From NCBI GenBank assembly GCA_046299555.1, contig JBKBHS010000001.1, forward strand, positions 928,009 to 992,008: DNA of 64,000 nt, read 5' to 3'. The notes beneath the pieces are model-generated. The model saw nothing but the letters and a program-made list of their open reading frames with translations. It was not told the origin of the DNA and did not search any database. Of the stretch, positions 1,098 through 36,535 are shown in pieces (positions within the stretch are counted from its first letter, which is position 1; the number at the start of each line of letters is the position of its first letter). The translations under genes and the position numbers were made by a program. The stretch comes from Bacteroidia bacterium. Its GTDB lineage: Bacteria > Bacteroidota > Bacteroidia > JACCXN01.

Positions 1098-1140
1098 GGC
1101 GTATAATTTGATTGCAAAAGTACCTTTTTCGTATTAAAGT

Positions 1141-1262
1141 TTGAATGTGTTAATGTGTTAAAGTTTTTAAATTAGTTGAAATTCATTGAGATTAGTTAAG
1201 ATTGATTGAAATTAGTTGTGATTTATTATAACCCATTGATTCATTTACACATTTACAAATTT
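1141..1262. repeat. dispersed intergenic repeat copy A (gtgttaa / gagatt-gattgattgaaatt / tgattcatttacacatttaca modules)
   Basis: Shares motifs with 25779-25968, 26205-26346, 28470-28585, 29290-29462 and 32462-32575 (inverted). Confidence 0.6.
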
Positions 1263-1267
1263 GCATA

Positions 1268-2062
1268 TTATAATATTTGCCCACTGCTTTCTGTTTCCAG
1301 CTTTTTGAAAGTAACTACTGTTGCGGCTACGGTTCCATATACCGGTGCAAAAATCCAACCTATAAACGGTATTAAGAATAATGCATAAAAAATTAAACCA
1401 TTACTTATTGCCAGCGATTTATTATTTCTCATAAAGTTTAAACTTTCTTTTATCGAAAATGATTTTAGTTCCATGCTATAATCCATCATGGAAAAGCCAT
1501 AGAAATAACTTTGCACCAGAACTAAAATGATTGGTGTAAATAATCCTAAACCGGGAATGAATGAAATGATAAAGAGCAGAAGTGTTAGCAATAATTCTTT
1601 AAATAAGTTTCTCGTATTAATGCGTATGCCACGCCAGGTGTTTTTTAGAAAAATATTCCATCTGAATGTTCCTGTATTATAACCTAAATGATGAGCTGTT
1701 TTTTCTGCCAGGTATGCCATTAAAGGAGCAAGAATAATAAGCATCATGTTTCTGAAAAGCGAAAGGTAGAGGAGTAAATAAATAATTCTAATACCAATAC
1801 TTAAAACATAATAAAGGGCTTTTAGTAAGAAATTAATAAACTTAATTTCTGAGTGCTGAGGAAAAAAATGATACAACCAATCTACCAGCCATTGTAGATA
1901 CACCATAGCCAGCGAAAAGGTGCTTATAAAAAATAGCGTGGCTATAATTGAAGGATAAATTAAAAACTTCCAAAAGCCTTGCTGCCAAATAATGCTATTT
2001 GCTTCGGCATATGCTTGTATGCTTAGTTTAAAATTATCGATGATGTTTTTTAGAGAAATCAA
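1268..2062 (-). CDS. polytopic membrane protein (EI24/CysZ-like, uncertain)
   Basis: 264-aa ORF with multiple hydrophobic helices; family call is a guess. Confidence 0.55.
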   Translation of the reverse strand: MISLKNIIDNFKLSIQAYAEANSIIWQQGFWKFLIYPSIIATLFFISTFSLAMVYLQWLVDWLYHFFPQHSEIKFINFLLKALYYVLSIGIRIIYLLLYLSLFRNMMLIILAPLMAYLAEKTAHHLGYNTGTFRWNIFLKNTWRGIRINTRNLFKELLLTLLLFIISFIPGLGLFTPIILVLVQSYFYGFSMMDYSMELKSFSIKESLNFMRNNKSLAISNGLIFYALFLIPFIGWIFAPVYGTVAATVVTFKKLETESSGQIL

Positions 2063-16289: not shown

Positions 16290-16463
16290 GTTACAAAACT
16301 GTCTAAACATAGATAAAAAACGGAAGCTTGATTTGATAATCTATCTACAAATTTAAATTAAATAAACCACAATATTTATATATGCATTTAATAAAGATAT
16401 TAATAAAAATGTAAAAATATTTCCTTGTAAATCAATATAAAACAACAAAAGCTTAAAATAATA

Positions 16464-16494
16464 TTTGCAGATATTAAAACCCTTAGTACATTTG
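16464..16494 (+). promoter_or_regulatory. rRNA operon promoter P1 (Bacteroidetes sigma-A type)
   Basis: TTTG -N19- TACATTTG matches the -33 TTTG / -7 TAnnTTTG consensus with 19-nt spacing. Confidence 0.6.
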
Positions 16495-16579
16495 CAGCCC
16501 TCAAACAAAGAAATCAACAACGTTCATTTGAAAAGTTTGAGAATGAAAAATAAATAAATAAAATTTTTTTCATAAAAAG

Positions 16580-16610
16580 TTTGCAGATTTAAAAACTGTA
16601 TGTACCTTTG
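16580..16610 (+). promoter_or_regulatory. rRNA operon promoter P2
   Basis: TTTG -N19- TACCTTTG; part of a ~100-bp repeat unit (aaaagtttgcagatttaaaaa...tacctttgcagcccctta). Confidence 0.65.
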
Positions 16611-16679
16611 CAGCCCCTTAAAAATGAATGTAGAGAAATAGAGGTTTAAAAACGAAGAGAAAAATATTTTAAAAAAAAG

Positions 16680-16710
16680 TTTGCAGATTTAAAAAAGGTG
16701 TTTACCTTTG
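16680..16710 (+). promoter_or_regulatory. rRNA operon promoter P3
   Basis: TTTG -N19- TACCTTTG; near-identical repeat of P2. Confidence 0.65.
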
Positions 16711-16784
16711 CAGCCCCTTAAAAATGATTAAGGGATTAAAACTTGAAAAGTAAATCGAAACAAAAAATATTTTTTTAAAAAATA

Positions 16785-16815
16785 TTTGCAGATTTAAAAA
16801 AGGTGTTTACCTTTG
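16785..16815 (+). promoter_or_regulatory. rRNA operon promoter P4
   Basis: TTTG -N19- TACCTTTG; near-identical repeat of P2/P3. Confidence 0.65.
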
Positions 16816-16990
16816 CAGCCCCTTAAAAATGATTCCTTAAAAATGATTAAGGGTTTAAAAAGTAAATTAAAACATTTTATTATATTATTAAGTTCTTTGA
16901 AAGATTTTATTGAAGAGGTAAAGGTAGCGTAATTGAATGATCACACCCCGTGATCAATGAGCCAACTCCAAATATTTTAAAATTTTTTAC

Positions 16991-18512
<1,522 letters not shown>

Positions 18513-18643
18513 AGAGTATTTGCTCATAATTTCAATTACGTTCCTTCCTCCTTCAATAAATATCTAAAACTTTTCCCATTAAACGAGCTCAGTGATGGTT
18601 CGGCCATCAGGGCATAAGGAATTAGTCCCCATTGGGATTTTAA

Positions 18644-18717
18644 AGTCCCGTAGCTCAGTTGGTTAGAGCACTACACTGATAATGTAGGGGTCAGCAGTTC
18701 AAGTCTGCTCGGGACTA
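18644..18717 (+). tRNA. tRNA-Ile (GAT) in 16S-23S spacer
   Basis: Cloverleaf agtcccg.../...cgggact; anticodon loop ctGATaa; T-arm agcagttcaagtctgct. Confidence 0.9.
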
Positions 18718-18731
18718 CAGAAAATCGTTTT

Positions 18732-18805
18732 GGGGAATTAGCTCAGCTGGCTAGAGCACCTGCCTTGCACGCAGGGGGTCAACGGTTCGAATCCGTTATT
18801 CTCCA
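18732..18805 (+). tRNA. tRNA-Ala (TGC) in 16S-23S spacer
   Basis: ggggaattagctcagctggctagagc...; anticodon loop ttTGCac; G3:U70 wobble in acceptor stem. Confidence 0.9.
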
Positions 18806-18887
18806 CAATTAACCGCTCATATTTATATAGCGGAAAAGTTCTTTGACATGTTGAAAGAGAGTACTTCTCATTAATTTTAATAATTTT

Positions 18888-21775
<2,888 letters not shown>

Positions 21776-21844
21776 TACATACAAATTATTAAAATTTATG
21801 ATAGTACTTTCTTTCTTTATGTCATTATAAAATATTAAAGATTT

Positions 21845-21954
<110 letters not shown>

Positions 21955-21961
21955 TTTAATT

Positions 21962-22023: not shown

Positions 22024-23907
22024 ATGAGATTCTTTTTAAGTTTTATAATTATACCTTTTGTATTTCACTCTTTCTCTTTTGCATCTCATCAATTTTCTTT
22101 AAAAATTGTAAATATTAATTCTGACTCAGTCAAAGTTTCATATCCATTATATTATTCTTTTTATTTTTCTTTTTCTGACTCTACTAATTATAATATTTGG
22201 AATGATAGTTCTTTAACTTTTATACATCGTTATGCATTTCATAAATATGGTTTAGAATGGCATAATGGCAATATTGGGCTTTCTAGAAATTCAATATTTT
22301 ACACCTATACAAAACCTGATTTTGGTTTTCAAGTAGGATTAAATGGTTTTGAAAATTATTTTTTTTCTTCAGAACCATTTAAAATTTTTCAAACCAGAAG
22401 ACCATATACTGAAATTTCTGTTGTATTAGGTTCTAATAAAGAACAAATTGCACGTTTATTACATACTCAAAATGTTAATGAGCGCTGGAATATTGCTTTT
22501 AGAATGAATAGAACGACATCTGAAGGTTTTTATTCGAGACAAAATGCGAATTTTAATTCCATACAATTACAATCTAATTATACTTCGAGAAATAAAAGAT
22601 ATGCGGCTATTTTTCAATCCAATTTTAATCGAGCTAATGCTTTTGAAAATGGAGGAGTAATTGATTCTGTTGATGTGCTTAATTCGGAGGAATTTTTAAA
22701 TGCACGTGGTATTCCAATTAATTTAAACGATGCGCGCAGACGAACTTCTGAAAATTCTGTTTGGATTAAGCAGTATTTTAATATAATTCATAAAGATTCT
22801 GTTTTAACAAATGATTCATTGTTTGAACATCGTTATTTTGTTAAAGCCGGATTGTCCAATATATCAGGTGTTTCAGGAAGGTATAGTTGGTTTAAGGACG
22901 AGGAAGCTGCTTTAGGTTTTTATTCTAACTTCAGAGATTCTATAACAAATGATTCGATAAACAAATTTAGTTTATATGATGAATTTCGTGCGCATGTTTA
23001 TTTTAATGATTTTGAGTTAAATGGTGGTATAAAATATGAATGGAATAAACTTAGTATGATTAATTACGATACTTTAGCTCAAAATTTAATTACTGTAAGT
23101 AGTTTGAACTGGCAAAATAAAAAAGGTAGTAATTTAGGTATAGACGCAAATTATGTTATTGCCGGATTTAATAGAAATGACTTTCGATTAAGAGCTTTTT
23201 TAAATTATAAGTTTTCAGAAGAATGGTTCCTAAATATTAATTATTTATCAGATTACAGAACACCTACTTTGCAGAGTTTGCGATGGGTTTCCAATAATTT
23301 TGAATGGAATAATTCTTTTAAGAAGGAATTATACAATGGAGGTTCTGCTTATTTAATTAATACAGACAGAGAATTTAAAGTAGGTGGAGGAATTCATTAT
23401 TTAACAAATCCTGTTTTTTACGATTTTGTTGCCCGACCAAAGCAATCCGATGGTAGTTCACAAATTGTACAAGCTTTAGCTGAAAAAACTTTTCAGGTTG
23501 GCAAGTTTTATTTAACCAACACTTTTGCATATCAGAAATCTTCTGCTGACTCCATTTTCAGAGTGCCGGAAATTATTTCTAAAAATGCTTTTTTCTTTCA
23601 GACAGATTTATTTAAACGTGCTATGAGAATTCAGTTGGGTGTTGATTTCTATTACTTTACATCCTTTACTCCTTATGCTTATATGGCAGCAAGTAATGTG
23701 TATTATCTTCAAAATAATCGATTAAGTGGTAATTATCCTTTCTTTGATGTTTTTCTAAATTTTAAAGTTAAAACATTAAGAGGTTTTATTATGCTGGATC
23801 ATGCTAATCAGGGGTTAATTGGAAATAATCAATATTATTTTATGCCGGGATATCCTTTTCCGGGAAGAACTGTAAAGCTTGGTTTAACTTGGGTGTTTAA
23901 GGATTAG
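22024..23907 (+). CDS. hypothetical outer-membrane beta-barrel protein (putative porin-like)
   Basis: 627 aa; N-terminal hydrophobic signal; rich in Y/F/N/S alternating strands; C-terminal ...LGLTWVFKD. Confidence 0.55.
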   Translation: MRFFLSFIIIPFVFHSFSFASHQFSLKIVNINSDSVKVSYPLYYSFYFSFSDSTNYNIWNDSSLTFIHRYAFHKYGLEWHNGNIGLSRNSIFYTYTKPDFGFQVGLNGFENYFFSSEPFKIFQTRRPYTEISVVLGSNKEQIARLLHTQNVNERWNIAFRMNRTTSEGFYSRQNANFNSIQLQSNYTSRNKRYAAIFQSNFNRANAFENGGVIDSVDVLNSEEFLNARGIPINLNDARRRTSENSVWIKQYFNIIHKDSVLTNDSLFEHRYFVKAGLSNISGVSGRYSWFKDEEAALGFYSNFRDSITNDSINKFSLYDEFRAHVYFNDFELNGGIKYEWNKLSMINYDTLAQNLITVSSLNWQNKKGSNLGIDANYVIAGFNRNDFRLRAFLNYKFSEEWFLNINYLSDYRTPTLQSLRWVSNNFEWNNSFKKELYNGGSAYLINTDREFKVGGGIHYLTNPVFYDFVARPKQSDGSSQIVQALAEKTFQVGKFYLTNTFAYQKSSADSIFRVPEIISKNAFFFQTDLFKRAMRIQLGVDFYYFTSFTPYAYMAASNVYYLQNNRLSGNYPFFDVFLNFKVKTLRGFIMLDHANQGLIGNNQYYFMPGYPFPGRTVKLGLTWVFKD

Positions 23908-23914
23908 TCAAAAT

Positions 23915-23990
23915 TCATAAGTCGTAAGTTCTAAGTCGTAAGTCATAAGTTAGAGGACAGAAGTCAGAAGTCAGAAAACAGAAACAGGAA
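23915..23990. repeat. imperfect heptamer-like tandem repeats (taagtcg/a; agaagtc)
   Basis: cataagtcgtaagttctaagtcgtaagtcataagt... acagaagtcagaagtcagaaaacagaaacagg. Confidence 0.6.
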
Positions 23991-23991
23991 T

Positions 23992-25068
23992 TTATCTTTT
24001 TCGTTGATCTTTTAAAATTTGTTTGGCGGTAATTCTTATCACGGAATAAGCTGGAATCGCTATCAACATTCCCAATACTCCATAAATTGTTCCTGCGGCA
24101 ATAACTACTAAGAAAATTTCAAGTGGATGTGCTTTAATACTCCTCGAAAAAATTAGTGGCTGAAAAACAAAATTATCGAGCAATTGAGTTCCAAACATGA
24201 TGATATAAGTTTTTAAATAAATGTTTGCTAAAGAAAATTCAGGACTTAAATATGACGCTGTAACAATAAAAAATGCAAACACCATTCCCATTAGTGGACC
24301 TATATATGGAATAATATTTAAAATAGCGGAAATGGTTGCAATAAGTAATGCATTTTTTATTCCCATTGCGCTTAGCCCAATAAAATTGCAGGTAAAAATG
24401 CAAATTACCTGAATGAATAATCCTATAAAATAGCGACTAAGTGTTTCTTTGCAATTTTTAATAATGGTACTTACAGAGTGTTTTTCAGCATCGGGTATAA
24501 GTAAAAATATTTTTTCTTTTATCAGCTCTTTATCTTTTATCAAAAAGAACGATATAAATATGATAGAGAAAAGTGCAATAAAAATATTTCCTGTAAATAG
24601 CAATGTATTACTTAGGGTATCGGCAATGTTTTTTGGATTAAATATGCTTAAAATTTTTTCCTGAAAAAACTCTAATACATTTCTATGGTCGTTTGGATAT
24701 AGCGATTGAAATATTTTGTCCAGTTTGTCAATTAAATGATAGAAATTGTCTTTTAGTAAAGTAATGTCTATGTAACTTAATGAATTTATTTGTTGATTTA
24801 TTAATGGAATAAATGATAAAATTATCGCGCTAATTATAGCTAAAAAAAGTAATAAAATTAGCGTAGCACTTAATGCTCTGGGAATTTGAAGTGTACGTTT
24901 GGCAATAGTGATGTTATTAAGCTTGTTTATCAAAGGGTCACTTATAAGCATAATTACAACAGAAATAGCCACATACATGGTAATGCTGAAAAAATTATAA
25001 ACTATAGCAGTAGCTAAAGCAGCTGCTATTAACCAAAAATAAGATTGTATGGAATTTTTTTGATACAT
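23992..25068 (-). CDS. AI-2E family transporter (PerM/YdiK-like permease)
   Basis: 358 aa; eight or more TM helices; typical AI-2E topology and conserved C-terminal region. Confidence 0.75.
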   Translation of the reverse strand: MYQKNSIQSYFWLIAAALATAIVYNFFSITMYVAISVVIMLISDPLINKLNNITIAKRTLQIPRALSATLILLLFLAIISAIILSFIPLINQQINSLSYIDITLLKDNFYHLIDKLDKIFQSLYPNDHRNVLEFFQEKILSIFNPKNIADTLSNTLLFTGNIFIALFSIIFISFFLIKDKELIKEKIFLLIPDAEKHSVSTIIKNCKETLSRYFIGLFIQVICIFTCNFIGLSAMGIKNALLIATISAILNIIPYIGPLMGMVFAFFIVTASYLSPEFSLANIYLKTYIIMFGTQLLDNFVFQPLIFSRSIKAHPLEIFLVVIAAGTIYGVLGMLIAIPAYSVIRITAKQILKDQRKR

Positions 25069-25111
25069 AAATCAAAGGTAAGAATAGTTATTTTTGTATA
25101 AAAAAATAACC

Positions 25112-25777
25112 ATGTCTAAAACAGCTTTAATTGCGGGAGCCAGTGGCTTGGTGGGTTCGTATTGTTTAGAATATTTATTACAATCAAAAATACACGATAA
25201 AGTAATTTGTATTACCCGAAAAACCTTGCCTAATCAATCGCCATATTTGCAGCAGATAATAGCCGATGCCAACAATCTTGCTGAAACGTTAAGCGAACTA
25301 AAAGCTGATGATGTGTATTGTTGTATTGGTACCACTATTAACAAAGCGGGTACCCAGGAGGCGTTTAAACAAGTAGATTATACTTATGTGAAAGTGTTGG
25401 CCGAGCAATTAAAAAATAATGGTGCAACATCGTTTGCCGTTGTTTCTTCTATTGGTGCTGATGCAAAATCTTCTAACTTTTATTTGCGCATCAAAGGCGA
25501 AATGGAAAATGCCGTAAAAGCATGCAATTATACAAAAACTATTATTTTGCGACCATCCATGCTTTTAGGACCACGAAAAGAATTCAGGATGGGTGAGGCA
25601 ATAGGTAAAGTGTTTATGACTACTTTTTCATTTTTGTTTGTTGGCAAGCTTAAGCGTTACAAAGCCATTGAAGCCACTCAAGTAGCCAAAGCTTTAATAC
25701 ATTTTACGCAAGAAGATTTTAAAGGGCTAAAAGTTGTTGAGAATGAAGAGTTGTTAGAATTGAAAATTGTAAATTGA
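25112..25777 (+). CDS. NAD(P)H-binding oxidoreductase (atypical SDR/epimerase-like)
   Basis: N-terminal Rossmann motif LIAGASGLVGSY; ORF-track start at 25094 is a TTG, ATG at 25112 preferred. Confidence 0.7.
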   Translation: MSKTALIAGASGLVGSYCLEYLLQSKIHDKVICITRKTLPNQSPYLQQIIADANNLAETLSELKADDVYCCIGTTINKAGTQEAFKQVDYTYVKVLAEQLKNNGATSFAVVSSIGADAKSSNFYLRIKGEMENAVKACNYTKTIILRPSMLLGPRKEFRMGEAIGKVFMTTFSFLFVGKLKRYKAIEATQVAKALIHFTQEDFKGLKVVENEELLELKIVN

Positions 25778-25778
25778 A

Positions 25779-25968
25779 GATTACAAATTGCAGATTAGAA
25801 GATTAGAAGATTAGAAATTGAGATTGATAGAAACTAATTGAAATTAGTGGAGATTAATTGAAGAATTTCGTTAGAATGTATTAACGTTTTAACGTGTTAA
25901 AGTGTGAAAGTTGAAATGTATGGAAATTGGTTGAAACTTATTGAGATTTATTGTTTTGAATGTATACA
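25779..25968. repeat. dispersed intergenic repeat copy B1 ((agaagatt)n stutter + gagattgatagaaa/gattaattgaa + gtgttaaagt modules)
   Basis: ttgagattgatagaaactaattgaaattagtggagattaattgaag...gttagaatgtattaacg...gtgttaaagtg shared with copies A/C/D. Confidence 0.6.
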
Positions 25969-26204
25969 AATATCAAATCTTTCGAATAAAACGAATAATG
26001 AAATTTTTAATTCATAAATAATAAATAAATACACCTCGTCATTGTTCTTTTATCTTTTAGTTTGTCTTCTATTATCTGGCAACTGTAAACTGTTAACTGT
26101 CTTCTTTTATTAAACCACAGAGAACGCAAAGAATTACGCAGAGCGCCACAGAGAAATTTTTTTTATCACCCGTCCTTATTCTTTTTACTGATGGCATATT
26201 GCTT

Positions 26205-26346
26205 TAATTGCACATTGACTCATTTACACATTTATTAATAGCCAACTGCCAACTGCTAACTGCCCACTACCCACTAACGACTTACACCTGACTACTTATA
26301 CCTAAAAAACTAATGGCTAATGGCTTTTAACTAAATAACTAAAAAA
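26205..26346. repeat. dispersed intergenic repeat copy B2 (tcatttacacattta module + (gccaact)n stutter + ctaatggctaatggct...actaaataactaaaaaa module)
   Basis: 3' 40 bp nearly identical to 29427-29466; 5' module matches 1236-1256 and 29358-29380. Confidence 0.6.
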
Positions 26347-26463
26347 GCAACCTTTTTTTGCTAATACGTTGTATATGAGTAGAAAATTATTTTATTAAAT
26401 CGACCAATAGCTTTCTAAATTAGATTAAAACCTATAAAGTGCCACTAAAAACTTGTATTTCAA

Positions 26464-26494
26464 TTTGTTAAATTAATAAGATGTTATATATTTG
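26464..26494 (+). promoter_or_regulatory. promoter for the small secreted protein / T9SS cargo operon
   Basis: TTTG -N19- TATATTTG (Bacteroidetes -33/-7 consensus) ending ~23 bp before ATG at 26517. Confidence 0.5.
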
Positions 26495-26516
26495 TTAATT
26501 GAAAAATTTTAGATTC

Positions 26517-26804
26517 ATGAAAAAATATTTCTTAGTATTCGCATTGTTAATCATATCAGGAACTTTAGTTTTTGGACAAAGTAATTCTGATTGCGATTCA
26601 ACCAAATGGGCAAAAGAAGGAACATATCTTGTTAAAATAGTTGAAGGTACTGTAGAGTCTACTGATGTAAGGCCTAGGGAACTAACAAGTGATGAAAAGT
26701 GCTTTATAGAACAAAATAGACATCTTACAAATGATGTTATTTTTAGATTTGATTTATATACAGAAGTGATTATCTATTCAAAAAATAAAATCTCGGAGAA
26801 ATGA
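26517..26804 (+). CDS. small secreted hypothetical protein (95 aa), translationally coupled to downstream T9SS cargo gene
   Basis: ATG at 26517 gives MKKYFLVFALLIISGTLVFGQ signal peptide; stop overlaps next start (ATGA at 26801-26804). Confidence 0.55.
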   Translation: MKKYFLVFALLIISGTLVFGQSNSDCDSTKWAKEGTYLVKIVEGTVESTDVRPRELTSDEKCFIEQNRHLTNDVIFRFDLYTEVIIYSKNKISEK

Positions 26805-28336
26805 GAAAATTATATTTATTTACGTTTTTTACAATCTTGCTAGTTGGAAATACATATGCGCAGCCTGCAAATGATGCTTGTGCAAGTGCAACAGCATTAA
26901 CTGTTAATGGCTCTTTACTTTGTGGTCAAACAACAAATAATGCAACTACACAAACAGGAGAAGCTTGTGCAGCATCTGGAGGTGGAGTCACACCTAGAAC
27001 AGTATGGTACTCATTTACTGCAACAAGTTCTTCTATGATTTTAAATTACTTAAGAACGAATACGTCAAATTGTATAACACGATTAAGCATTTACGGACCA
27101 AATCCAACCTGTGTTCCCGGTGCCGGAGCTCAGTTATCAGGATTTGCCTGTATTGATGTATATACAGGAGATCCAGGAAAATATTTAACAATGTCTGGTT
27201 TAGTTGTTGGCGCCACTTATCTAATTCAAGTTAATGGGCAAGATTGTGGAGGTGGAAACGATAGATTTCATAATTTTTGTATAGGTGTTTATACTCCAAA
27301 TACAAATAATTCTGTATCTGCTCCATCTGTTATAACGGAATGTGGTACAACATATAATGGCTCAACACAAGGTGGGTATTCTCCCTCAGGAACTGGAGTG
27401 GGTTTTAGGAATTTAGACGGTAATAATAGTACTACTTGTCCTTCTTGTGCTACAGCAGGTGACGATGTTACTTTTGTTATAAATAACGATTCTTGGTTTT
27501 CATTTTGTACAGTTAATGCGGGTACTTGGCAAGTAACTTTTAGTGTTGGCACATGCGTATTCTCTGGAATAAATAGTGGTGCTCAAATGGCATTATTTAC
27601 TGGTAGCCCAACAGCGTTAACTTGGCATTCACAAGCTACAAATCCAACTTATGCAGGAGGATCGTGGACCTCTCCTACTATTACTTTAGCTGCTGGTGGA
27701 TGTGCATATATGGTTGTGGATGGATTTGCAGGTGATGCATGTACTTATTCTTATACAGTAACCAATCTTTCTGGTGGTTGTATTTTATTACCTATTGAAT
27801 TATTATCATTTAACTACACTAAAGAAGGAAACAATGTAAATATTCAATGGAAAACAGCCACAGAAACTAATAATGACTTCTTTACGTTAGAAAAATCAAG
27901 CGATGGAATTAATTATGAATTTTTCCAAAACATTAAAGGGGCAGGTAATTCTAATATGCCAATAGAGTATAAAACCAAAGATACTAATCCTTTTGAAGGT
28001 GTAACCTATTATCGCTTAAAACAAACGGATTATGATGGTAATTTTGAATATGTAGGAACAATTGCAGTTAAAACAAATAAAGCTGTTGAGAATATTGCAG
28101 TAATTCCCAACCCTGTTTTAAATAATGCAGAAATAAATTTCAATTCCAATTTAAATGGAGTTTCTCGCATTCAAATAATTGATATTACAGGTAAGCAAGT
28201 TTATACAGAAAGTATAAATACTAATGAAGGCCCAAACCGTTTTGTATTAAATACAGAAAATTATAATAAAGGGCTTTACTTCTTGGTTATCTCTAACGAA
28301 TTCGGTACTGAAAAATTAAAGTTTGTAAAAGAGTAA
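26801..28336 (+). CDS. secreted protein with two PPC-like domains and a T9SS type-A C-terminal sorting domain
   Basis: 511 aa; signal peptide; N-terminal domain resembles the PPC-like domains of the 1528-aa adhesin (ANDACASATAL...TVWYSFTA); C-terminal IAVIPNPVLNNAEINF...KGLYFLVISNEFGTEKLKFVKE Por secretion tail. Confidence 0.8.
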   Translation: MRKLYLFTFFTILLVGNTYAQPANDACASATALTVNGSLLCGQTTNNATTQTGEACAASGGGVTPRTVWYSFTATSSSMILNYLRTNTSNCITRLSIYGPNPTCVPGAGAQLSGFACIDVYTGDPGKYLTMSGLVVGATYLIQVNGQDCGGGNDRFHNFCIGVYTPNTNNSVSAPSVITECGTTYNGSTQGGYSPSGTGVGFRNLDGNNSTTCPSCATAGDDVTFVINNDSWFSFCTVNAGTWQVTFSVGTCVFSGINSGAQMALFTGSPTALTWHSQATNPTYAGGSWTSPTITLAAGGCAYMVVDGFAGDACTYSYTVTNLSGGCILLPIELLSFNYTKEGNNVNIQWKTATETNNDFFTLEKSSDGINYEFFQNIKGAGNSNMPIEYKTKDTNPFEGVTYYRLKQTDYDGNFEYVGTIAVKTNKAVENIAVIPNPVLNNAEINFNSNLNGVSRIQIIDITGKQVYTESINTNEGPNRFVLNTENYNKGLYFLVISNEFGTEKLKFVKE

Positions 28337-28357
28337 TCTGAGTAAATATTAAAAAAA

Positions 28358-28393
28358 TTAAGCCTGCCCTAGTGGTGGGCTTTTTTGTTTTTT
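28358..28393 (+). terminator. probable rho-independent terminator
   Basis: Weak stem aagcc...ggctt / gccc...gggc followed by ttttttgtttttt. Confidence 0.4.
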
Positions 28394-28469
28394 AGGAGTT
28401 AGGGAATAGGTGTTAGTAGTAAGTCTTAAGTTATTAGTCGCTAGGCATAAGGAGTAAGTGAAGTGGTTG

Positions 28470-28585
28470 GTGTGTGTTAAAGTTAGAACGTTAGAATGTG
28501 TTAATGTTTGAGATTAATAGAAACTCTTTGAGATTGATAGAAATTAGAGATTAATTGAAATTCTTAGAGATTGAAATAGGATATA
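28470..28585. repeat. dispersed intergenic repeat copy C
   Basis: gttagaatgtgttaatgtttgagattaatagaaactctttgagattgatagaaattagagattaattgaaattcttagagattgaaatagg; preceded by word-like stutter aggagttagggaataggtgttagtagtaagt... Confidence 0.6.
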
Positions 28586-28703
28586 TTTGTTTCAGATTAA
28601 AAGTAATTTTTTGACTTGTATTAGTAAAATAGAATTAATCCTGAATTTCAAGACAAGCAATGTTGGAATAGCTGGGGTTTTTGATGAATTCAATTATTTC
28701 TTC

Positions 28704-28979
28704 TTAGTGGGAAAGAATAATTTCTGCTAGCATGCTGGTTGATTTATTTCCTGTTCTTAGCCAAACTATTTTAGGGGGTATCCCATAAAGGTTAGATTAA
28801 TCGAAAAAATCCGCATCAAAGGTAACTATTGTGTAGTTATGATCTTTTGCAAATTTCCAAATCTGAATGTCTGTATTGTTCTCAATTCCAAGAGTTCTTA
28901 CTTGAGCAGCAAGTGGAAAATAATCCCTAATTTTTTCTACTATTCTAAAAGAAATATTTTGATCAAATAATAGTCTCAT
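28704..28979 (-). pseudogene. DUF5615 (PIN-like) toxin gene interrupted by in-frame TAA after codon 60
   Basis: 60-aa ORF MRLLFDQNISFRIVEKIRDY...TIVTFDADFFD stops at 28797-28799; same frame continues SNLYGIPPKIVWLRTGNKSTSMLAEIILSH to a stop at 28704-28706, matching the usual C-terminal half of DUF5615 proteins. Confidence 0.55.
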
Positions 28980-29203
28980 TAAGCTACTCGTAAACGGTTT
29001 TCACGGTCAGCAGCATAGGCTAAACAGGCTTGAATATCCTCTTCTGTAAGTTCCGGATAATCCAATAAGATTTCCTTTGTAGTCATTCCGGAAGCTAAAT
29101 AGCTTAAAATATCGTACTCTGAAATACGAGTATTTCTAATACATGGTTTTCCGAAGCGTTTTTCGGGGTTTATTTTAATTATAATAGAATAATCTTTCAT
29201 CAT
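28979..29203 (-). CDS. DUF433 domain protein (antitoxin-like partner of DUF5615)
   Basis: 74 aa; ...RFGKPCIRNTRISEYDILSYLASGMTTKEIL.DYPELTEEDIQACLAYA typical of DUF433; 1-nt overlap with downstream DUF5615 ORF. Confidence 0.75.
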   Translation of the reverse strand: MMKDYSIIIKINPEKRFGKPCIRNTRISEYDILSYLASGMTTKEILLDYPELTEEDIQACLAYAADRENRLRVA

Positions 29204-29289
29204 GTTGTATTGCCAAAATTTATCATTATTTAGCTAACTCAAATTTTAGCAAAAAAATATGAATGTTAAATTTTAAAGTAAATATTTAA

Positions 29290-29462
29290 AGCGTTTGAAT
29301 TAATAATAGAGACTAATTGAAACTCATAGCGATTGATAGAAATTAAAGATTAATTGTGATTCATTTACATATTTACACATTTTCACATTCTCAAATTGGC
29401 AAATCATCAAATTCTCAAATCAATATAACTAATGGCTAATGGCTTATTACTAAATAACTAAA
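29290..29462. repeat. dispersed intergenic repeat copy D (all three modules contiguous)
   Basis: gagactaattgaaactcatagcgattgatagaaattaaagattaattgtgattcatttacatatttacacatttt + caaattctcaaat stutter + aactaatggctaatggcttattactaaataactaaaaaaa. Confidence 0.65.
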
Positions 29463-29481
29463 AAAATCACTACCTTTCCCT

Positions 29482-30858
29482 GTGCAAAAAAATGATCCTA
29501 AAATTATTCGCGCATGGGCTATGTACGACTGGGCAAACTCAGTGTATCCGCTCGTAATTACTTCTACTATTTTTCCCATTTATTATACCGCTGTTACCAC
29601 ACATCAGGGTTCTGATATGGTGCAGTTTTTAGGAATGAATTTTAAGAATACCGCACTATATACCTATGCCATGGCATTTGCTTATTTATTGATTGCAGCT
29701 GTTGCTCCATTGCTTTCAGGTATTGCCGACTATGGCGGTAAGAAAAAAGGATTTATGATGTTTTTCTGCTATGTTGGTGCTATAGCTTGTTCTGCAATGG
29801 CTTTATTTACAGGACCTGAAAATTTATGGATAGGAATATTAACCATTGTTTTGGCTTGTATAGGATATTCGGGAAGTATTGTATTTTACAATGCCTATTT
29901 GCCGGAAATAGCTACACCCGATATGCAAGATAGAGTAAGTGCCAAAGGCTATTCACTGGGTTATATAGGAGGAGCAATTCTTTTAATTTTAAATTTAGTA
30001 TTGATATTAATGCCCGATTTATTTTATGATGTAGCAGGAAGAATAAACGAATTAAAGCTTGTTGAAACAACTCTTACAGATGATGAAGCCCGTGAAAAAG
30101 TGCTTTCATCTTTATCGGGTATATCCTCGCGCATTTCATTTTTTACTACCGGCATTTGGTGGATTTTATTTGCGCATTACAGTTTTTACTATTTGCCCAA
30201 AAATGTATTTAATCGCAAGCCAGAAGGAAATATATTGTTTAAAGGTTATCTGGAATTGATAAAAGTGTGGCAGGAGTTAAAATCAAACCCTACTTTAAAA
30301 AAATATCTGAGTGCATTTTTTAGCTATAATATGGGCGTGCAAACAGTAATGCTGGTAGCTACACTTTTTGGCAGTAAAGAATTGCAATTGGAATCAGGCG
30401 AATTAATAATGACCATATTAATTATTCAGTTTGTAGCTATAGGCGGTGCTTATTTGTTTTCGGGTTTATCGGGCAAATATGGCAATATTTACATTTTACG
30501 CGTTGCTACCTTGCTGTGGATAGGTATTTGTTTTATGGCCTACTTTGTTACATCAGCAGTGCAGTTTTATGTTTTAGCATTTTTTGTAGGATTGGTAATG
30601 GGAGGCATACAATCTTTATCGCGCTCTACCTATTCTAAACTTTTGCCCGAAACTATTGACCATGCCTCTTATTTTAGTTTTTATGATATTTGCGAAAAAT
30701 TGGGAATAGTGCTTGGAATGGGGCTTTTTGGAATTATAGAAGAAGTATCAGACAGTATGCGAAATTCTGTGATAGCTTTATTTCTGTTTTTCCTGATAGG
30801 TTTCTTACTTTTGTTGCGGATAAATAATAAATTGACCATCCAACAATCAAAACACTAA
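29482..30858 (+). CDS. MFS transporter, UMF1/Atg22-like family
   Basis: 458 aa; 12 predicted TM helices; N-terminal AWAMYDWANSVY motif typical of UMF1 family; start codon GTG at 29482 (alternative ATG at Met14). Confidence 0.7.
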   Translation: MQKNDPKIIRAWAMYDWANSVYPLVITSTIFPIYYTAVTTHQGSDMVQFLGMNFKNTALYTYAMAFAYLLIAAVAPLLSGIADYGGKKKGFMMFFCYVGAIACSAMALFTGPENLWIGILTIVLACIGYSGSIVFYNAYLPEIATPDMQDRVSAKGYSLGYIGGAILLILNLVLILMPDLFYDVAGRINELKLVETTLTDDEAREKVLSSLSGISSRISFFTTGIWWILFAHYSFYYLPKNVFNRKPEGNILFKGYLELIKVWQELKSNPTLKKYLSAFFSYNMGVQTVMLVATLFGSKELQLESGELIMTILIIQFVAIGGAYLFSGLSGKYGNIYILRVATLLWIGICFMAYFVTSAVQFYVLAFFVGLVMGGIQSLSRSTYSKLLPETIDHASYFSFYDICEKLGIVLGMGLFGIIEEVSDSMRNSVIALFLFFLIGFLLLLRINNKLTIQQSKH

Positions 30859-30861
30859 TTA

Positions 30862-31584
30862 ATGGTAGTAGATATTTTTATTCCCTGTTTTGTAGATCAG
30901 ATATATCCGCAAACGGGGATGAATATGGTAAAAATACTGGAGCACATAGGTTGTGGCGTAAATTATAATATAGAGCAAACCTGTTGTGGACAGCCTGCGT
31001 TTAATGCAGGTTTTTGGGATCACTGCAAAGAAATTGGAGAAAAGTTTATACGCGAATTTCCTGAAAATCGTCCTATCGTAATGCCTTCTGCTTCCTGTGC
31101 CGGCTTCGTAAAAAATGGCTATCCGGAAATGTTTCATAACTCTGTTTTGCATAATGAGTACAAGCAGGTTCGTAAAAATATTTATGAGTTTACCGATTTT
31201 TTGGTAAATGTTTTAAAGATTACCGATTTAGGAGCAAAGCTCGAAGGTAAAGCAACCTTTCATGATTCCTGTTCAGGATTACGAGAGTATGGAATAAAGC
31301 GCGAACCAAGGGTATTACTTGAAAAAGTAAAAGGGCTTGAATTTATTGAAATGAATGATTGCGAAACTTGTTGTGGTTTTGGAGGCATGTTTTCAGTAAA
31401 GTTTGAACCTATTGCAGTAGCTATGGCAGAACAGAAAGTTGAAAATGCCTTGGCAACAGGAGCAGAATATTTAATATCTACCGATTTGTCGTGTTTGATG
31501 CACATGGATGGCTATATTAAAAAGAAAAAATTACCTATAAAATGCATGCATATTATTGATGTGCTTGTAACCGGAGTTGAATAA
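30862..31584 (+). CDS. (Fe-S)-binding cysteine-rich (CCG) domain protein, LutA-like
   Basis: 240 aa; two CCG-type motifs (TCCGQPAFNAGF; CETCCGFGGMFSV); size and N-terminus (DIFIPCFVDQ) as in LutA. Confidence 0.7.
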   Translation: MVVDIFIPCFVDQIYPQTGMNMVKILEHIGCGVNYNIEQTCCGQPAFNAGFWDHCKEIGEKFIREFPENRPIVMPSASCAGFVKNGYPEMFHNSVLHNEYKQVRKNIYEFTDFLVNVLKITDLGAKLEGKATFHDSCSGLREYGIKREPRVLLEKVKGLEFIEMNDCETCCGFGGMFSVKFEPIAVAMAEQKVENALATGAEYLISTDLSCLMHMDGYIKKKKLPIKCMHIIDVLVTGVE

Positions 31585-32461
31585 TAAAAATAAAATTATG
31601 GAATTAATGTTAAAAGAAAATGCGCTGAAAGGCAAAACCATTTTAGTTACCGGAGGAGGTACAGGCCTTGGCAGATCAATGTCAGAAGCGTTTTTAAAGT
31701 TGGGTGCCAATATAGTTATATGCAGTAGAAAGCAAGATATAATTGAAAAAGCAGCCGCTGATATGATGCAGCAATATGGAGGCGAAGTATTAGGATTACC
31801 TTGTGATGTGCGAAAATATGATGAGGTAGAAAAAGTTATTGAAGCTGCATATGCAAAATTTGGCGGTATTGATGTGTTGGTAAACAATGCAGCAGGGAAT
31901 TTTATTAGCCCTACAGAACGCTTGAGCCACAAAGCTTTTGATGTAATTGTGGATATTGTTTTAAAAGGAAGTTATAACTGCACATTGGCACTTGGCAAAA
32001 AATGGATTGCAGAAAAAAGAAAAGCCAACGTATTAAGCATCGTTACTACCTATTCGTGGACAGGTTCCGGTTATGTAGTTCCATCAGCTTGCGCTAAAGC
32101 AGGTGTGTTGGCGCTTACACGCTCATTAGCTGCTGAATGGGGAAAATACGGCATTCGCTTAAATGCCATTGCTCCGGGTCCATTTCCTACAGAGGGGGCT
32201 TTTAGTCGTTTGTTTCCTGAGGCAGCAACCAAATTAATGGATCCTAAAAAACGAATTCCATTGCAGCGCTATGGCGAACATCATGAGTTAGCAAATTTGG
32301 CTTGTTACTTAGTGTCTGATTTTGCAGCCTATATAAATGGAGAAGTTGTAACTATTGATGGTGGCGAATGGTTGCATGGTGCCGGAGAGTTCAATGCCTT
32401 TGATGCTGTACCGCAAGAAATGTGGGATATTATTGAAAAACAAGTGAGGGGGAAGGGTTAA
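31577..32461 (+). CDS. SDR family oxidoreductase, 2,4-dienoyl-CoA reductase-like
   Basis: TGGGTGLG Rossmann motif, NNAAGNF, YxxxK (SACAKAG); likely true start ATG at 31598 (MELMLKE). Confidence 0.75.
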   Translation: MNNKNKIMELMLKENALKGKTILVTGGGTGLGRSMSEAFLKLGANIVICSRKQDIIEKAAADMMQQYGGEVLGLPCDVRKYDEVEKVIEAAYAKFGGIDVLVNNAAGNFISPTERLSHKAFDVIVDIVLKGSYNCTLALGKKWIAEKRKANVLSIVTTYSWTGSGYVVPSACAKAGVLALTRSLAAEWGKYGIRLNAIAPGPFPTEGAFSRLFPEAATKLMDPKKRIPLQRYGEHHELANLACYLVSDFAAYINGEVVTIDGGEWLHGAGEFNAFDAVPQEMWDIIEKQVRGKG

Positions 32462-32575
32462 TTAGCTAATTTGATGATGTGGTAATTTGATAATTTGATA
32501 ATGTGATAATAGAACAATCAGTATCTATTAGTTTCAATCTATTTCAATAAATCTCAACGTTTAAACATTAATACT
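32462..32575. repeat. dispersed intergenic repeat copy E (inverted orientation) with (gataatt)n stutter
   Basis: Reverse complement of caatcagtatctattagtttcaatctatttcaataaatctcaac = gttgagatttattgaaatagattgaaactaatagatactgattg resembles the gagatt/gattgaaa units of copies A-D. Confidence 0.5.
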
Positions 32576-32595
32576 TTCAAACTAGTCAACTAAGA

Positions 32596-33924
32596 ATGCT
32601 CGCAGAATTTCTTCGCTTTGTAAAGTTGCAGCAGCTTTTTAAACAAGGCGAACCTTTGCTGGTAGCTGTTAGCGGAGGTAAAGATTCTGTTTGTCTGGCG
32701 CATTTACTTTCATTAGCTGAATTTAATTTTTCGATAGCACATTGCAATTTTAAATTAAGAGGAAAGGAAAGCGATGAAGATGCTTATTTTGTTAAGCAAT
32801 TTGCAAAAGAGTTGGGAGTAGATTTTTATCAGAAAGATTTTGATACTGCAAATTATGCCGATGAGAAAAAAATAAGTATTCAGGAAGCTGCGCGTGAATT
32901 ACGATATGCATGGTTCAGAGAATTGAAAAAGCAAAAGGGATTTTCAAAAATTCTTACAGCACATCATCAGGATGATTCGGTTGAAACATTTTTTATTAAT
33001 CTTTTTCGCTCCAGCGGAATTTCGGGACTTACAGGTATTTCAGCAATATCTGAAGATATAGTACGACCTTTATTGTTTGCTTCGCGTAATGAAATAGACA
33101 AACATATCCAAACCTTTAATCTTGCATACCGTGAAGATAGCAGCAATGCCAGCGATGCCTATTTGCGAAATAAAATTCGCCATACGATTATTCCCCGAAT
33201 TCAAGACTTAGATAATCGTTCTTACAAAGGATTATTGCAGAGTATAGAATTTTTAAAAAGCGACTATACGCTTTTTCAATATTTGATTAACAATGAAACA
33301 GAACATTTAATTAAAAAAGATGCTGATAAAATAATAATTGATTTGCCTTTGTTAAAGCAGCATGCAATGGCAGAAGCATTGCTTTTTCAAATATTAAAAC
33401 CTTTTGGATTTCATAAGAATGAAATAATTAAGGTATTGAATTGCGAAGAAAGTGGCAAATTGTTTTATACTACATCACACAGAGCCTTAATTAATAGAAA
33501 TGAATTCATCATTTCTAAAAGAACAGAAAACGATGTTTTAACATCGACATTTATTGAAGAGGATGAAACAGAAATTTTCTATCCTATAAAATTGCGGTTT
33601 GAAAAACTTGAGAAAAAACAAGTTGAATTTTCAGCAGATAAAAATACAGTTTATTTAGATGCTGATAAATTAAAATGGCCGCTAGAATTACGCAAGTGGC
33701 AAGCGGGAGATTGTTTTGTGCCCCTTGGTATGAAAGGAAGAAAAAAAGTGAGCGATTTTTTAATTGATGAAAAAGTATCGTTGATGGATAAAGAAAGTAC
33801 TTTTGTGCTTTTATCTACTAATGAAATCGTATGTTTAATAGGGCATCGTATTAGCAATCATTATAAAATTACTGAAGACACAATAAACATACTAAAGCTT
33901 GAATTAATTCCCGAAAATATTTAG
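32596..33924 (+). CDS. tilS: tRNA(Ile)-lysidine synthetase
   Basis: 442 aa; PP-loop SGGKDS at N-terminus; TilS-like C-terminal domain. Confidence 0.85.
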   Translation: MLAEFLRFVKLQQLFKQGEPLLVAVSGGKDSVCLAHLLSLAEFNFSIAHCNFKLRGKESDEDAYFVKQFAKELGVDFYQKDFDTANYADEKKISIQEAARELRYAWFRELKKQKGFSKILTAHHQDDSVETFFINLFRSSGISGLTGISAISEDIVRPLLFASRNEIDKHIQTFNLAYREDSSNASDAYLRNKIRHTIIPRIQDLDNRSYKGLLQSIEFLKSDYTLFQYLINNETEHLIKKDADKIIIDLPLLKQHAMAEALLFQILKPFGFHKNEIIKVLNCEESGKLFYTTSHRALINRNEFIISKRTENDVLTSTFIEEDETEIFYPIKLRFEKLEKKQVEFSADKNTVYLDADKLKWPLELRKWQAGDCFVPLGMKGRKKVSDFLIDEKVSLMDKESTFVLLSTNEIVCLIGHRISNHYKITEDTINILKLELIPENI

Positions 33925-35374: not shown

Positions 35375-36535
35375 ATGCAGGATTTATCTACTTATATACT
35401 CGACAAGTTAAATACGCTTGTTGTAATGCTTGACGAAAGCGGAAATGCCTCATTTGTTAGCAATGCCTCTAAAAGCATTTTAGGCTATGAGCCTAAGCAA
35501 TTGCTCGGTAAAGGCTGGTTTGATTTAACTCGTAAAAATGAAACAGACAGGAATGCAATGCGCGAATTGGTTCAAAAAGCCATTAAAAACGAAAGTGCTG
35601 AATTGATTGCTTCGGGCGAGCGTTTGCTATATTCTGCCACAGGCGCTGAGAAATGGATTTTGTGGAATACCGTTAAAGGTCCTGATAAATCGTTAATTGC
35701 AATTGGTTATGACATAACCGAGCGCAAGTCTATGGAGCAAGCGCTCGAAAAAGCCAATAATAATTTATTAAAAAAGAATAAAGAAATTATTGAAAGCATT
35801 CAGTATGCACAACGCATACAGCAAGCTATTTTGCCGGATGTTTCTCAGATTAAGAAAGCATTTGGAAATGCATTTGTATTGTACAAACCCAAAGATATTG
35901 TAAGCGGTGATTTTTACTGGTTTTTTGAAAAAGGTAATGACAAATATGTTGCAGCCGTAGATTGTACAGGACATGGTGTGCCAGGTGCGTTAATGTCGGT
36001 TGTGGCTCATTCTTTATTTAAAGAAGTATTTATAAATAAAGGCTTAACAGAGCCGGTAGAAATTTTATCTGCAATTGATTTTGAGTTGCAAAAAGAGTTG
36101 GGTAAAAATCCTGATAAAGTAAAATCGTCAGATGGAATGGATGTAGCCTTATTAAAGTATAATAGCGAAAATCGTACAATTACTTTTGCCGGTGCATTCA
36201 GGCCTTTACTTTTGGTTAGAAATAATTTTGTAGAAGAGTTAAGTGGCAGCAGATTCCCAATTGGTTTTTACAGCGATGTAATAAAAGAGTTTACACAGCA
36301 TGAAATTAACTTACAACAAGGAGATGCTGTGTATCTATTCTCTGATGGATATGTAGATCAGTTTGGAGGAGAAAAAGGTAAAAAGTTAAATAGAAAAAGA
36401 TTTAAAGAATTGCTTTTAACCATATCAGAAATGGAAACAGATGAACAAGAAGCTTTTTTGGAATACGCATTTAATAACTGGAGACAGCAAGAGGAGCAAA
36501 CAGATGATATTGTTGTAATTGGGTTAAAGTTTTAG
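35375..36535 (+). CDS. PAS domain-containing PP2C/SpoIIE-family protein phosphatase
   Basis: N-terminal PAS; C-terminal PP2C motifs (SGDFYWFF..., DCTGHGVPGALMS, DGYVDQFGG). Confidence 0.8.
   Translation: MQDLSTYILDKLNTLVVMLDESGNASFVSNASKSILGYEPKQLLGKGWFDLTRKNETDRNAMRELVQKAIKNESAELIASGERLLYSATGAEKWILWNTVKGPDKSLIAIGYDITERKSMEQALEKANNNLLKKNKEIIESIQYAQRIQQAILPDVSQIKKAFGNAFVLYKPKDIVSGDFYWFFEKGNDKYVAAVDCTGHGVPGALMSVVAHSLFKEVFINKGLTEPVEILSAIDFELQKELGKNPDKVKSSDGMDVALLKYNSENRTITFAGAFRPLLLVRNNFVEELSGSRFPIGFYSDVIKEFTQHEINLQQGDAVYLFSDGYVDQFGGEKGKKLNRKRFKELLLTISEMETDEQEAFLEYAFNNWRQQEEQTDDIVVIGLKF

Follow-up and report, generated by a model that had tools for sequence, protein, structure and literature searches.

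A modular, dispersed intergenic repeat family with a fixed module order in AT-rich Bacteroidia DNA

We analysed a 64,000-nucleotide (nt) stretch of DNA from Bacteroidia bacterium (assembly GCA_046299555.1, contig JBKBHS010000001.1, positions 928,009 to 992,008; hereafter the window, or W) and an intergenic repeat at 29290-29462 within it. The window was AT-rich Bacteroidota DNA with a G+C content of ~32%, and it carried many genes for type IX secretion (T9SS), an rRNA operon at 16989-21955 and promoter boxes of the TAnnTTTG type. With ~4.6 kb of left flank and a right flank added, ~77 kb of sequence from this genome was examined. The repeat lay in a divergent spacer of 278 nt (29204-29481), which separated a DUF433/DUF5615 gene pair from an ATG22-type MFS gene. 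The copy found there, copy E, covered 29255-29465 on the plus strand and consisted of m0-like sequence (29255-29299), m1 (29300-29356), m2 (29357-29389), m2b (CAAATTCT units, 29390-29425) and m3 (29427-29465). The A run of m3 was followed, just 5' of the MFS start, by the plus-strand stretch TCACTACCTTTCCCT (29466-29481), which was kept in L087-L091 (L-numbers denote loci from other genomes or contigs). Within this stretch, TACCTTTC at 29471-29478 resembled TAnnTTTG, the -7 box of Bacteroidetes, which takes the form TACCTTTG in the rRNA promoters; 29466-29481 is likely the core promoter and does not belong to the repeat. A preliminary description had called the locus the most complete copy of its family, placed directly upstream of the MFS gene, and our analysis agreed.

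The same description had divided the locus into three modules that recur at six or more loci, too often for chance. We found that all three modules recurred where they had been described, far above chance. Module 1 was present in direct orientation (repeat family D5) at 1169-1231, 25811-25873, 28501-28563, 28538-28600 and 29300-29362, and inverted (I1) at 32515-32583. Module 2 (D8/D9) was found at 1234-1268, 26213-26239 and 29354-29388, while the two copies of module 3 (26308-26346 and 29427-29465) differed by 2 mismatches in 39. In pattern searches against shuffled controls, module 3 gave 2 matches at ≤3 mismatches when 0 were expected, module 2 behaved alike, and a 15-mer of module 1 gave 4 matches against 0.71 expected. 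When the spacers were compared all against all by blastn, the matches were collinear, 60-120 nt long and 65-85% identical, both direct (1131-1280, 25817-25955, 26213-26346, 28474-28574 and 29280-29465) and inverted (32458-32583); near-identical young copies were absent among the window copies in this comparison. A lag-match scan evaluated with a first-order Markov model detected 10 short-period segments in the window, where 0.11 were expected, and 8 within the spacers alone, where 0.14 were expected. The matches at all six loci existed, but they occupied five spacers, those at 25.8 kb and 26.2 kb sharing one.

An alignment of nine copies, some in the window and some in relatives, revealed one chain whose order, m0-m1-m2-m2b-m3, was fixed in at least nine copies. 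The m0 module was made of GTTAATGT-type units, m1 of GAGATTAATWGAAAYTNNTT in units of 10/20 nt, m2 of CATTTACA units and m2b of CAAATTCT units; m3 consisted of (CTAATGG)2 followed by TAACTAAATAACTAA and closed in an A run. The chain was present in direct and inverted orientation, as in ordered-module repeats of the BOX/NIME type. Tandem Repeats Finder gave periods of 7, 8, 10, 14, 16 and 20 in every copy, the lag-match scan had its maxima at lags 7, 8 and 10, and head-to-tail units in the 5-11-nt range were thus present. Matches within arrays were 70-92% and the unit drifted along the element, so the arrays lacked the strict, single near-perfect unit of short tandemly repeated repetitive (STRR) sequences and long simple sequence repeats (LSSR). 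The earlier view that modules are joined by stuttering microsatellites was correct as to modularity, but the modules themselves, and not only the joints, proved to be degenerate stutter arrays. No coding potential was found in the copies: the longest open stretch was ≤49 codons, and stop codons numbered 15-25 per 100 nt versus a window mean of 12.8. A CRISPR array was ruled out, the units being 7-20 nt long, contiguous and degenerate rather than identical 24-48-nt repeats with unique spacers. Collectively, the family is real, modular, dispersed, intergenic and non-coding.

The remaining copies varied in completeness and setting. Copy A (1131-1285, plus strand) contained m0 at ~1136-1163 (GTTAATGT), m1 at 1169-1231 and m2 at 1234-1268 (CATTTACA); it was flanked by two minus-strand genes and stood upstream of a -7 box of the TAnnTTTG type (1115-1122, minus strand). 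Spacer C carried plus-strand arrays in two parts. Its left part (25758-25955) comprised 7/8-nt arrays (GAAGATTA), an mX-like ATTGCAGATTA at 25773-25789, m1 (25816-25859), m0 (25866-25915) and a second m1-like block (25916-25955). Its right part (26039-26346) comprised AACTGTA heptamers (26039-26110), a CACAGAG/CGCAAAG stutter (26113-26166), m2 (26213-26239), GCCAACT heptamers (26241-26300) and m3 (26308-26346). The stutter at 26113-26166 was G+C-richer, reading CCACAGAGAA CGCAAAGAATTA CGCAGAGCG CCACAGAGAAA and then a T run, and its unit type was unlike the others in spacer C. In spacer D (28386-28580, plus strand), TAAGTNN heptamers (28386-28470) preceded m0 (28474-28507) and m1 (28508-28580); these arrays stood directly 3' of an intrinsic terminator (28360-28385) and formed the left direct copy beside the DUF5615/DUF433 cassette. 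Between them and the DUF5615 gene lay ~200 nt of non-coding DNA (28582-28796) with a TATATTTG box at 28582-28589, no open reading frame and nothing resembling the cassette of L087, possibly a decayed gene or untranslated region. Copy F, in the SDR-TilS spacer, was inverted (32458-32590, minus strand), with inverted m2/m2b at 32458-32514, which was C-free on the plus strand, and inverted m1 and m0 at 32515-32590, which was G-poor on that strand. Outside the m0-m3 family, a heptamer array of ATAAGTC/AGAAGTC units showed a similar phenomenon, taking up the entire convergent spacer (23908-23991) from a porin gene to an AI-2E transporter gene.

The array-bearing spacers separated tandem genes (1098-1267, 25778-26516 and 32462-32595), convergent genes (23908-23991 and 28337-28796) and divergent genes (29204-29481), in accordance with the earlier statement that the elements follow neither one promoter type nor one gene arrangement. 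The arrays were located 5' of conserved putative -7 boxes belonging to predicted promoters, such as TCACTACCTTTCCCT before the MFS gene. Because they lay upstream of these short, -7-box-like stretches, which were conserved in all relatives, the arrays were probably not core promoters themselves. Their position also bears on phase-variation (contingency) repeats, in which the tract sits within an ORF or between the -33 and -7 elements of a promoter and a change in unit number switches expression; relative to the predicted promoters, the arrays stood 5' of the putative -7 box. It was also observed that contigs from independent short-read assemblies of the same strain (L005, L006 and L004) ended at 28368, 29409 and 29436, in or at the edge of repeat-bearing spacers.

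Close relatives were identified through TilS homologues, whose identities were graded (91, 89, 84, 79, ~70 and 56%) and then fell to 46%, indicating that the source organism belongs to a sparsely sampled clade. Contigs found by the MFS protein were distant relatives only (≤64% identity) and served as controls, not as orthologues, and same-strain Logan contigs carrying the identical MFS protein were 100% identical to the window, hence without polymorphism information. The gene order MFS-CCG-SDR-TilS-Gate was kept among the close relatives. Iterated nhmmer profile and module searches gave matches in this clade only. Module searches of 1.28 Mb from other Bacteroidota returned 0-1 matches, and 54 kb from other AT-rich Bacteroidia with a homologous T9SS-cargo operon contained no array and no module. 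The density of stutter segments was 15.6-19.7 per 100 kb in the clade versus 2.3-2.6 and 0 elsewhere. Since other AT-rich Bacteroidia have few arrays or none, AT-richness alone is not the cause of the arrays.

One clade member, L108, had a TilS only 56% identical and a gene order different from that of the window. It nevertheless carried the m0 and mX 17-mers four times each, together with an inverted m1, at loci non-orthologous to those of the window. In addition, W, L087 and L108 shared m3, 30-32/33 identical, 5' of a small-protein/T9SS-cargo operon, while identity between the W and L108 cargo proteins was a mere 35%. A neutral spacer would be unrecognisable at such a distance, and gene conversion within a genome cannot keep a consensus between genomes; some sequence-specific constraint is therefore likely, exerted either by a factor that binds the sequences or by a machinery that propagates them. 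The idea that m3 is a universal cis-element of this operon was rejected, as three homologous operons outside the clade had neither m3 nor arrays. A metagenome scan with the m3 pattern (GGCTTNTNACTAAATANCTAA) returned 11 loci, all of them unrelated chance matches without arrays.

Two further observations concern these loci. The operon itself (26517-28336; L108 710-2486; L109-L111) was a two-gene unit that has been kept in Bacteroidia although its surroundings vary greatly, and in which a ~90-aa signal-peptide protein gene overlapped by 4 nt the gene of a ~500-aa T9SS cargo protein with a Cys-rich N-terminal part. The L108 spacer at 217-709 was full of a different, palindromic repeat (..CTCGCAATGACG..CGTCATTACGAG.., arms GAAGTAATC/GATTGCTTCG) in at least 4 copies, resembling a classical repetitive extragenic palindromic (REP)-like hairpin family in the same clade.

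Differences in unit number were then apparent in the comparison of W, L087 and L088, which included indels of 16, 8 and 7 nt. The SDR-TilS spacers of W and L087 were distinguished by one 16-nt (two-unit) insertion, carried by L087, and by substitutions at two of 134 nt; they were 98.5% identical, compared with 85-88% for third codon positions in the genes on either side. The L088 spacer was conserved at its ends, but its centre was swapped for a different chain of the same kind. Indels of 7 and 8 nt separated relatives in spacers C and D, and L087 had additional 16-nt units 5' of the MFS gene. Such unit-size steps, occurring in bursts, fit slippage and recombination better than steady substitution.

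The copies also bracketed genes whose presence differed between relatives. The epimerase and MFS genes were separated by a single 365-nt repeat-filled spacer in L090/L091, whereas the window had the small-protein/T9SS-cargo operon and the DUF5615/DUF433 pair between them. The 3-kb segment absent in L090/L091 was bracketed in the window by direct copies of m2 plus m3 (26213-26346 and 29357-29465), and the DUF5615/DUF433 pair was bracketed by direct copies of m1 (28508-28560 and 29307-29356) that were 82.5% identical. At the corresponding site 5' of the MFS gene, L088 (1296-1563) had a single m1 and no cassette, and L087 (2764-3021) had an NTP_transf_2 cassette, again bracketed by m1 copies. From these arrangements we infer that the copies may act as substrates of duplication or deletion at cassettes. 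The DUF5615/DUF433 site (28797-29203) appeared to be a small hotspot for toxin-antitoxin-type cassettes within the repeat, and the C-terminus of the L087 NTP_transf_2 gene was encoded by m1 sequence. As a further gene-content difference at strain level, a PAS/SpoIIE phosphatase gene (35375-36535) with its preceding spacer was present in W, L087, L089 and L090 and absent in L088.

The reading that we tentatively favour is an intergenic mosaic repeat under sequence constraint, which undergoes slippage and recombination and has variable cassettes between its copies, with a putative binding factor; this is possible rather than established. Each copy would fill the DNA from the end of one gene to the core promoter of the next, in either orientation. 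Its arrays would lengthen and shorten through replication slippage, and copies would be gained and lost by spacer duplication and recombination, providing portable homology for the gain and loss of cassettes. The unit sequences may be held by a sequence-specific partner, that is, a DNA-binding or single-strand-binding factor reading the tandem units. Candidate effects on neighbouring genes include insulation, spacing and an upstream regulatory site, the last being most plausible for m3. Among the identities proposed in advance, an array of protein-binding sites is a candidate that gains indirect support from the persistence of module sequences over deep divergence.

Several findings weigh against this interpretation. 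The window copies resembled each other at only 65-85%, and most window spacers had no array. Five of the seven array-bearing spacers in the ~77 kb clustered at 23.9-32.6 kb, beside strain-variable genes, so that the copies may seem more dispersed than they are, largely as a result of local duplication. The lag-match scan found no array at 32.6-64 kb of the window; one heptamer array lay ~4.7 kb past its right end and 0 were found in the 4.6 kb past its left end. Confinement to one region, which the preliminary description had named as evidence against a dispersed family, was thus observed in part: this clustering agreed with it, but one copy lay 22 kb off at 1.1 kb and the relatives had non-orthologous copies. 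The conservation of m3 concerned a homologous operon and may reflect one ordinary cis-regulatory site instead of a property of the whole family, and m3 was absent 5' of the MFS gene in L087 and L088. The centre of the SDR-TilS spacer was ~75% identical in L088, below the third-position identity, indicating that turnover is tolerated. Finally, the G-rich-then-C-rich polarity described below was partly a general trend of Bacteroidota spacers.

The foremost alternative is that the arrays are neutral, cryptically simple DNA, produced by slippage in AT-rich spacers and made alike by local duplication, gene conversion and composition filters, for example a G-poor sense strand 5' of genes. We consider this somewhat unlikely. 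It accords with the unit-size indels between strains, with the presence of arrays in all spacer types without a preferred orientation, with the turnover of the SDR-TilS centre in L088 and with similar arrays built from other units in other Bacteroidota. A composition filter was also visible: in 80 Bacteroidota loci (L007-L086), among spacer halves upstream of genes, a sense-strand excess of C over G was counted 266 times versus 132, while downstream halves had no bias (169 versus 190). AUG is depleted near start codons in Bacteroidetes, a phylum without Shine-Dalgarno sequences (PMC6847099), and the upstream C excess agrees with this published depletion. Neutral slippage does not readily account for the persistence of 17-33-nt module sequences while TilS fell to 56-70% and the cargo protein to 35% identity between genomes, nor for a module order fixed in at least nine copies. 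Moreover, conversion within genomes would be unable to keep a consensus across them, and other AT-rich Bacteroidia had ~seven-fold fewer arrays, or none.

A broader extension, which we hold to be doubtful, is that the family represents a class of intergenic elements in Bacteroidia that proteins recognise and that have no hairpin, acting as a bidirectional insulator or as a docking or recombination site for small cassettes. The tandem 7-10-nt units may then be reading frames for a clade-specific DNA- or single-strand-binding factor, and the cassettes gained and lost may be toxin-antitoxin genes and T9SS cargo operons.

Strand composition bears on another alternative, namely a transcription insulator or factor-dependent terminator that loads Rho (rut-like) and stops read-through where no hairpin terminator is present. 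Read on either strand, the element presented a C-free part first and a G-free part second. Of the array-bearing spacers, 26 of 29 had more G than C in their first half and more C than G in their second (outside the clade, 15 of 18), compared with 216 of 349 controls. As a consequence of this polarity, transcripts from either side would enter an unstructured G-free stretch, which keeps the insulator explanation alive; the polarity is unaffected by inversion, matching the use of both orientations. The G-poor strands were predicted to fold very weakly (minus strand of D, -3.6 kcal/mol for 225 nt; minus strand of C1, -10.2 kcal/mol for 236 nt), and spacers B, C, F and A had no terminator-like hairpin after the upstream gene. 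However, spacer D follows a good intrinsic terminator, copy E, whose spacer is divergent, has no gene reading into it, the G-free blocks are only modest in C content, and the polarity is in part the general trend noted above. Insulation also leaves the conservation of specific unit sequences unexplained, and we judge it improbable. In distant Bacteroidota, some stutter arrays occurred as inverted pairs, with a G-containing array first and its complement second (L020 9880-9980, L051 19830-20000, L067 9900-10020 and L075 1510-1570); the L075 pair would form a long hairpin followed by T-rich sequence. Arrays also stood directly 5' of the MFS homologue in L020, L067 and L086.

The preliminary description had further suggested a family like REP sequences or MITEs (miniature inverted-repeat transposable elements), or small-RNA loci, and had proposed that terminal inverted repeats, target-site duplications and RNA folding be inspected. 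The minimum-free-energy z-scores of all copies on both strands ranged from -2.3 to +2.2, and 7 of 14 were positive. The single z below -1.2 came from a strand whose folding energy was close to nil (-10.2 kcal/mol for 236 nt), and two ordinary spacers bearing terminators gave z of -2.7 to -3.9 for comparison. RNAalifold placed 0 pairs on the nine aligned copies. No hairpin was thus found in any copy, and the stem-loop of the imperfect 20-40-nt palindromes in REP sequences and bacterial interspersed mosaic elements (BIMEs) was rejected. Likewise, folding, RNAalifold and the inverted-repeat search revealed neither the bounding inverted repeats nor the stable structure of BOX elements and Neisseria intergenic mosaic elements (NIMEs). 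Inverted similarity was limited to m0 versus m2, whose units were roughly the reverse complement of one another: the arms, 13-18 nt long, were 83% complementary at 1144-1161/1244-1261 and 92% at 29278-29290/29364-29376. No short target-site duplication was found at the sites compared, and no empty orthologous site was found, every orthologous spacer examined being occupied. The only filled-versus-empty comparison, at the cassette-empty site, revealed a ~50-nt m1 duplication and not a target-site duplication.

An old MITE-like element, with an m1 core, decayed terminal inverted repeats in the form of m0 and m2 on its two sides and a transposase encoded elsewhere, is consequently very improbable, and the proposed MITE/REP identity was not sustained. 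The near-complementary arms speak for it, as do the length of 120-170 nt, the AT-rich intergenic setting, the use of both orientations and the short-read assemblies that break inside copies. Against it stand the lack of hairpin energy and of consensus pairing, the missing short duplication, the filled orthologous sites in all relatives down to ~70% TilS identity, the absence of near-identical young copies, the absence of any blastn match to the repeat in plasmid records and the position of m3 outside the putative terminal repeats. Copies E and F as the inverted ends of a composite transposon around MFS-CCG-SDR were also rejected, because this gene order is common to all relatives. A small-RNA or cis-acting structured-RNA locus is scarcely credible: the copies are intergenic and partly conserved among relatives, but searching 23800-32700 brought no Rfam match at E≤1 (in the whole window, only rRNA and tRNA passed the gathering threshold), no copy was clearly stabler than its shuffles, the alignment yielded no pairs, and both orientations relative to genes occur. 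Structured RNA was accordingly rejected on folding of both strands, RNAalifold and Rfam. Curved DNA was not supported either; in a wedge-model estimate, mean array curvature was ≤ the window median and maxima were ≤ the 98th percentile, and the 10-nt phasing of m1 produced no exceptional predicted curvature.

We compared the family with known intergenic repeats. The BOX elements of Streptococcus pneumoniae adopt a stable stem-loop, while NIME mosaics of Neisseria have dRS3 inverted repeats at their borders. Like these, the m0-m3 family is modular and intergenic, varies in internal module number, occurs in both orientations and is tied to recombination or cassette variation; unlike them, it has no stem-loop or bounding inverted repeats, and no sequence relationship was evident. 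With REP/BIME and MITEs it shares being short, multi-copy, intergenic, non-coding and assembly-interrupting, but it lacks palindromes, strong terminal inverted repeats, target-site duplications and presence/absence alleles. Its genomic behaviour thus resembles that of REP/BIME, BOX and Neisseria NIME, written in direct repeats instead of hairpins. STRR heptamers were reportedly described in cyanobacteria by Mazel and colleagues in 1990. As in LSSR and STRR, where heptamers prevail, short tandem units of above-chance length lie mainly in non-coding DNA, and the strain differences in unit number match the slippage proposed for LSSR. Those repeats have one near-perfect unit, whereas the present arrays are degenerate and what is conserved is an ordered composite.

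No description of the m0-m3 family was found in the literature, and the nearest report was that of MacGregor (2015, PMC4679880), in which TAACTGA and other heptamer repeats were described from intergenic regions in Beggiatoaceae, in Cyanobacteria and in five Bacteroidetes. In that study, Elizabethkingia had near-identical repeat assemblages at different loci, contigs were seen to end within such assemblages, and a role in rearrangement was suggested; relatives sharing gene order differed in repeat content, and heptamers were often mixed with other heptamers (PMC4679880). The LSSR survey of Mrazek et al. (2007; units of 5-11 nt), as summarised in PMC4679880, likewise found that heptamers dominate and proposed slippage. 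The present family resembles these heptamer assemblages in its 7-nt-class direct repeats in spacers, its mixed units and its broken assemblies, and it includes TAACTGA-like units (TAACTGC and CAACTGC at 26241-26262; TTAACTGA in L103). It differs in that its arrays are degenerate with mixed 7-, 8- and 10/20-nt periods and form a fixed-order chain, which is itself dispersed and invertible, is not concentrated just 5' of start codons and is built from clade-specific units. We therefore file it as a new clade-specific short-unit repeat assemblage, since it combines a heptamer-type make-up with BOX/NIME-like behaviour and has no hairpins or bounding inverted repeats. Its notable features are the fixed module order and the deep conservation. 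In Bacteroidota, short-read assemblies are interrupted at repeat-filled spacers of this type. An ordered, invertible unit that is retained in sequence across the clade and brackets cassettes makes tractable the question of what reads the units, and whether they drive local gene content or insulate neighbours in a phylum without Shine-Dalgarno-guided initiation. If the arrays were mere slippage debris, their value would be confined to annotation and assembly.

Two other repeats were observed in the window. A T9SS-associated adhesin-like gene on the minus strand (10705-15291; 1528 aa; GBD_T9SS_assoc, Ig_7 and CHU_C) contained at least 6 in-frame tandem repeats of 258 nt (86 codons) at 11176-13019, which were 65-80% identical. 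At 16426-16832, 5' of the 16S rRNA gene, four tandem promoter-like units (TTTGCAGATTTAAAAA..GT.TACCTTTGCAGCCCC) were spaced 100-116 nt apart; each had a TTTG and a TAnnTTTG box, and together they resembled stacked rRNA promoters.

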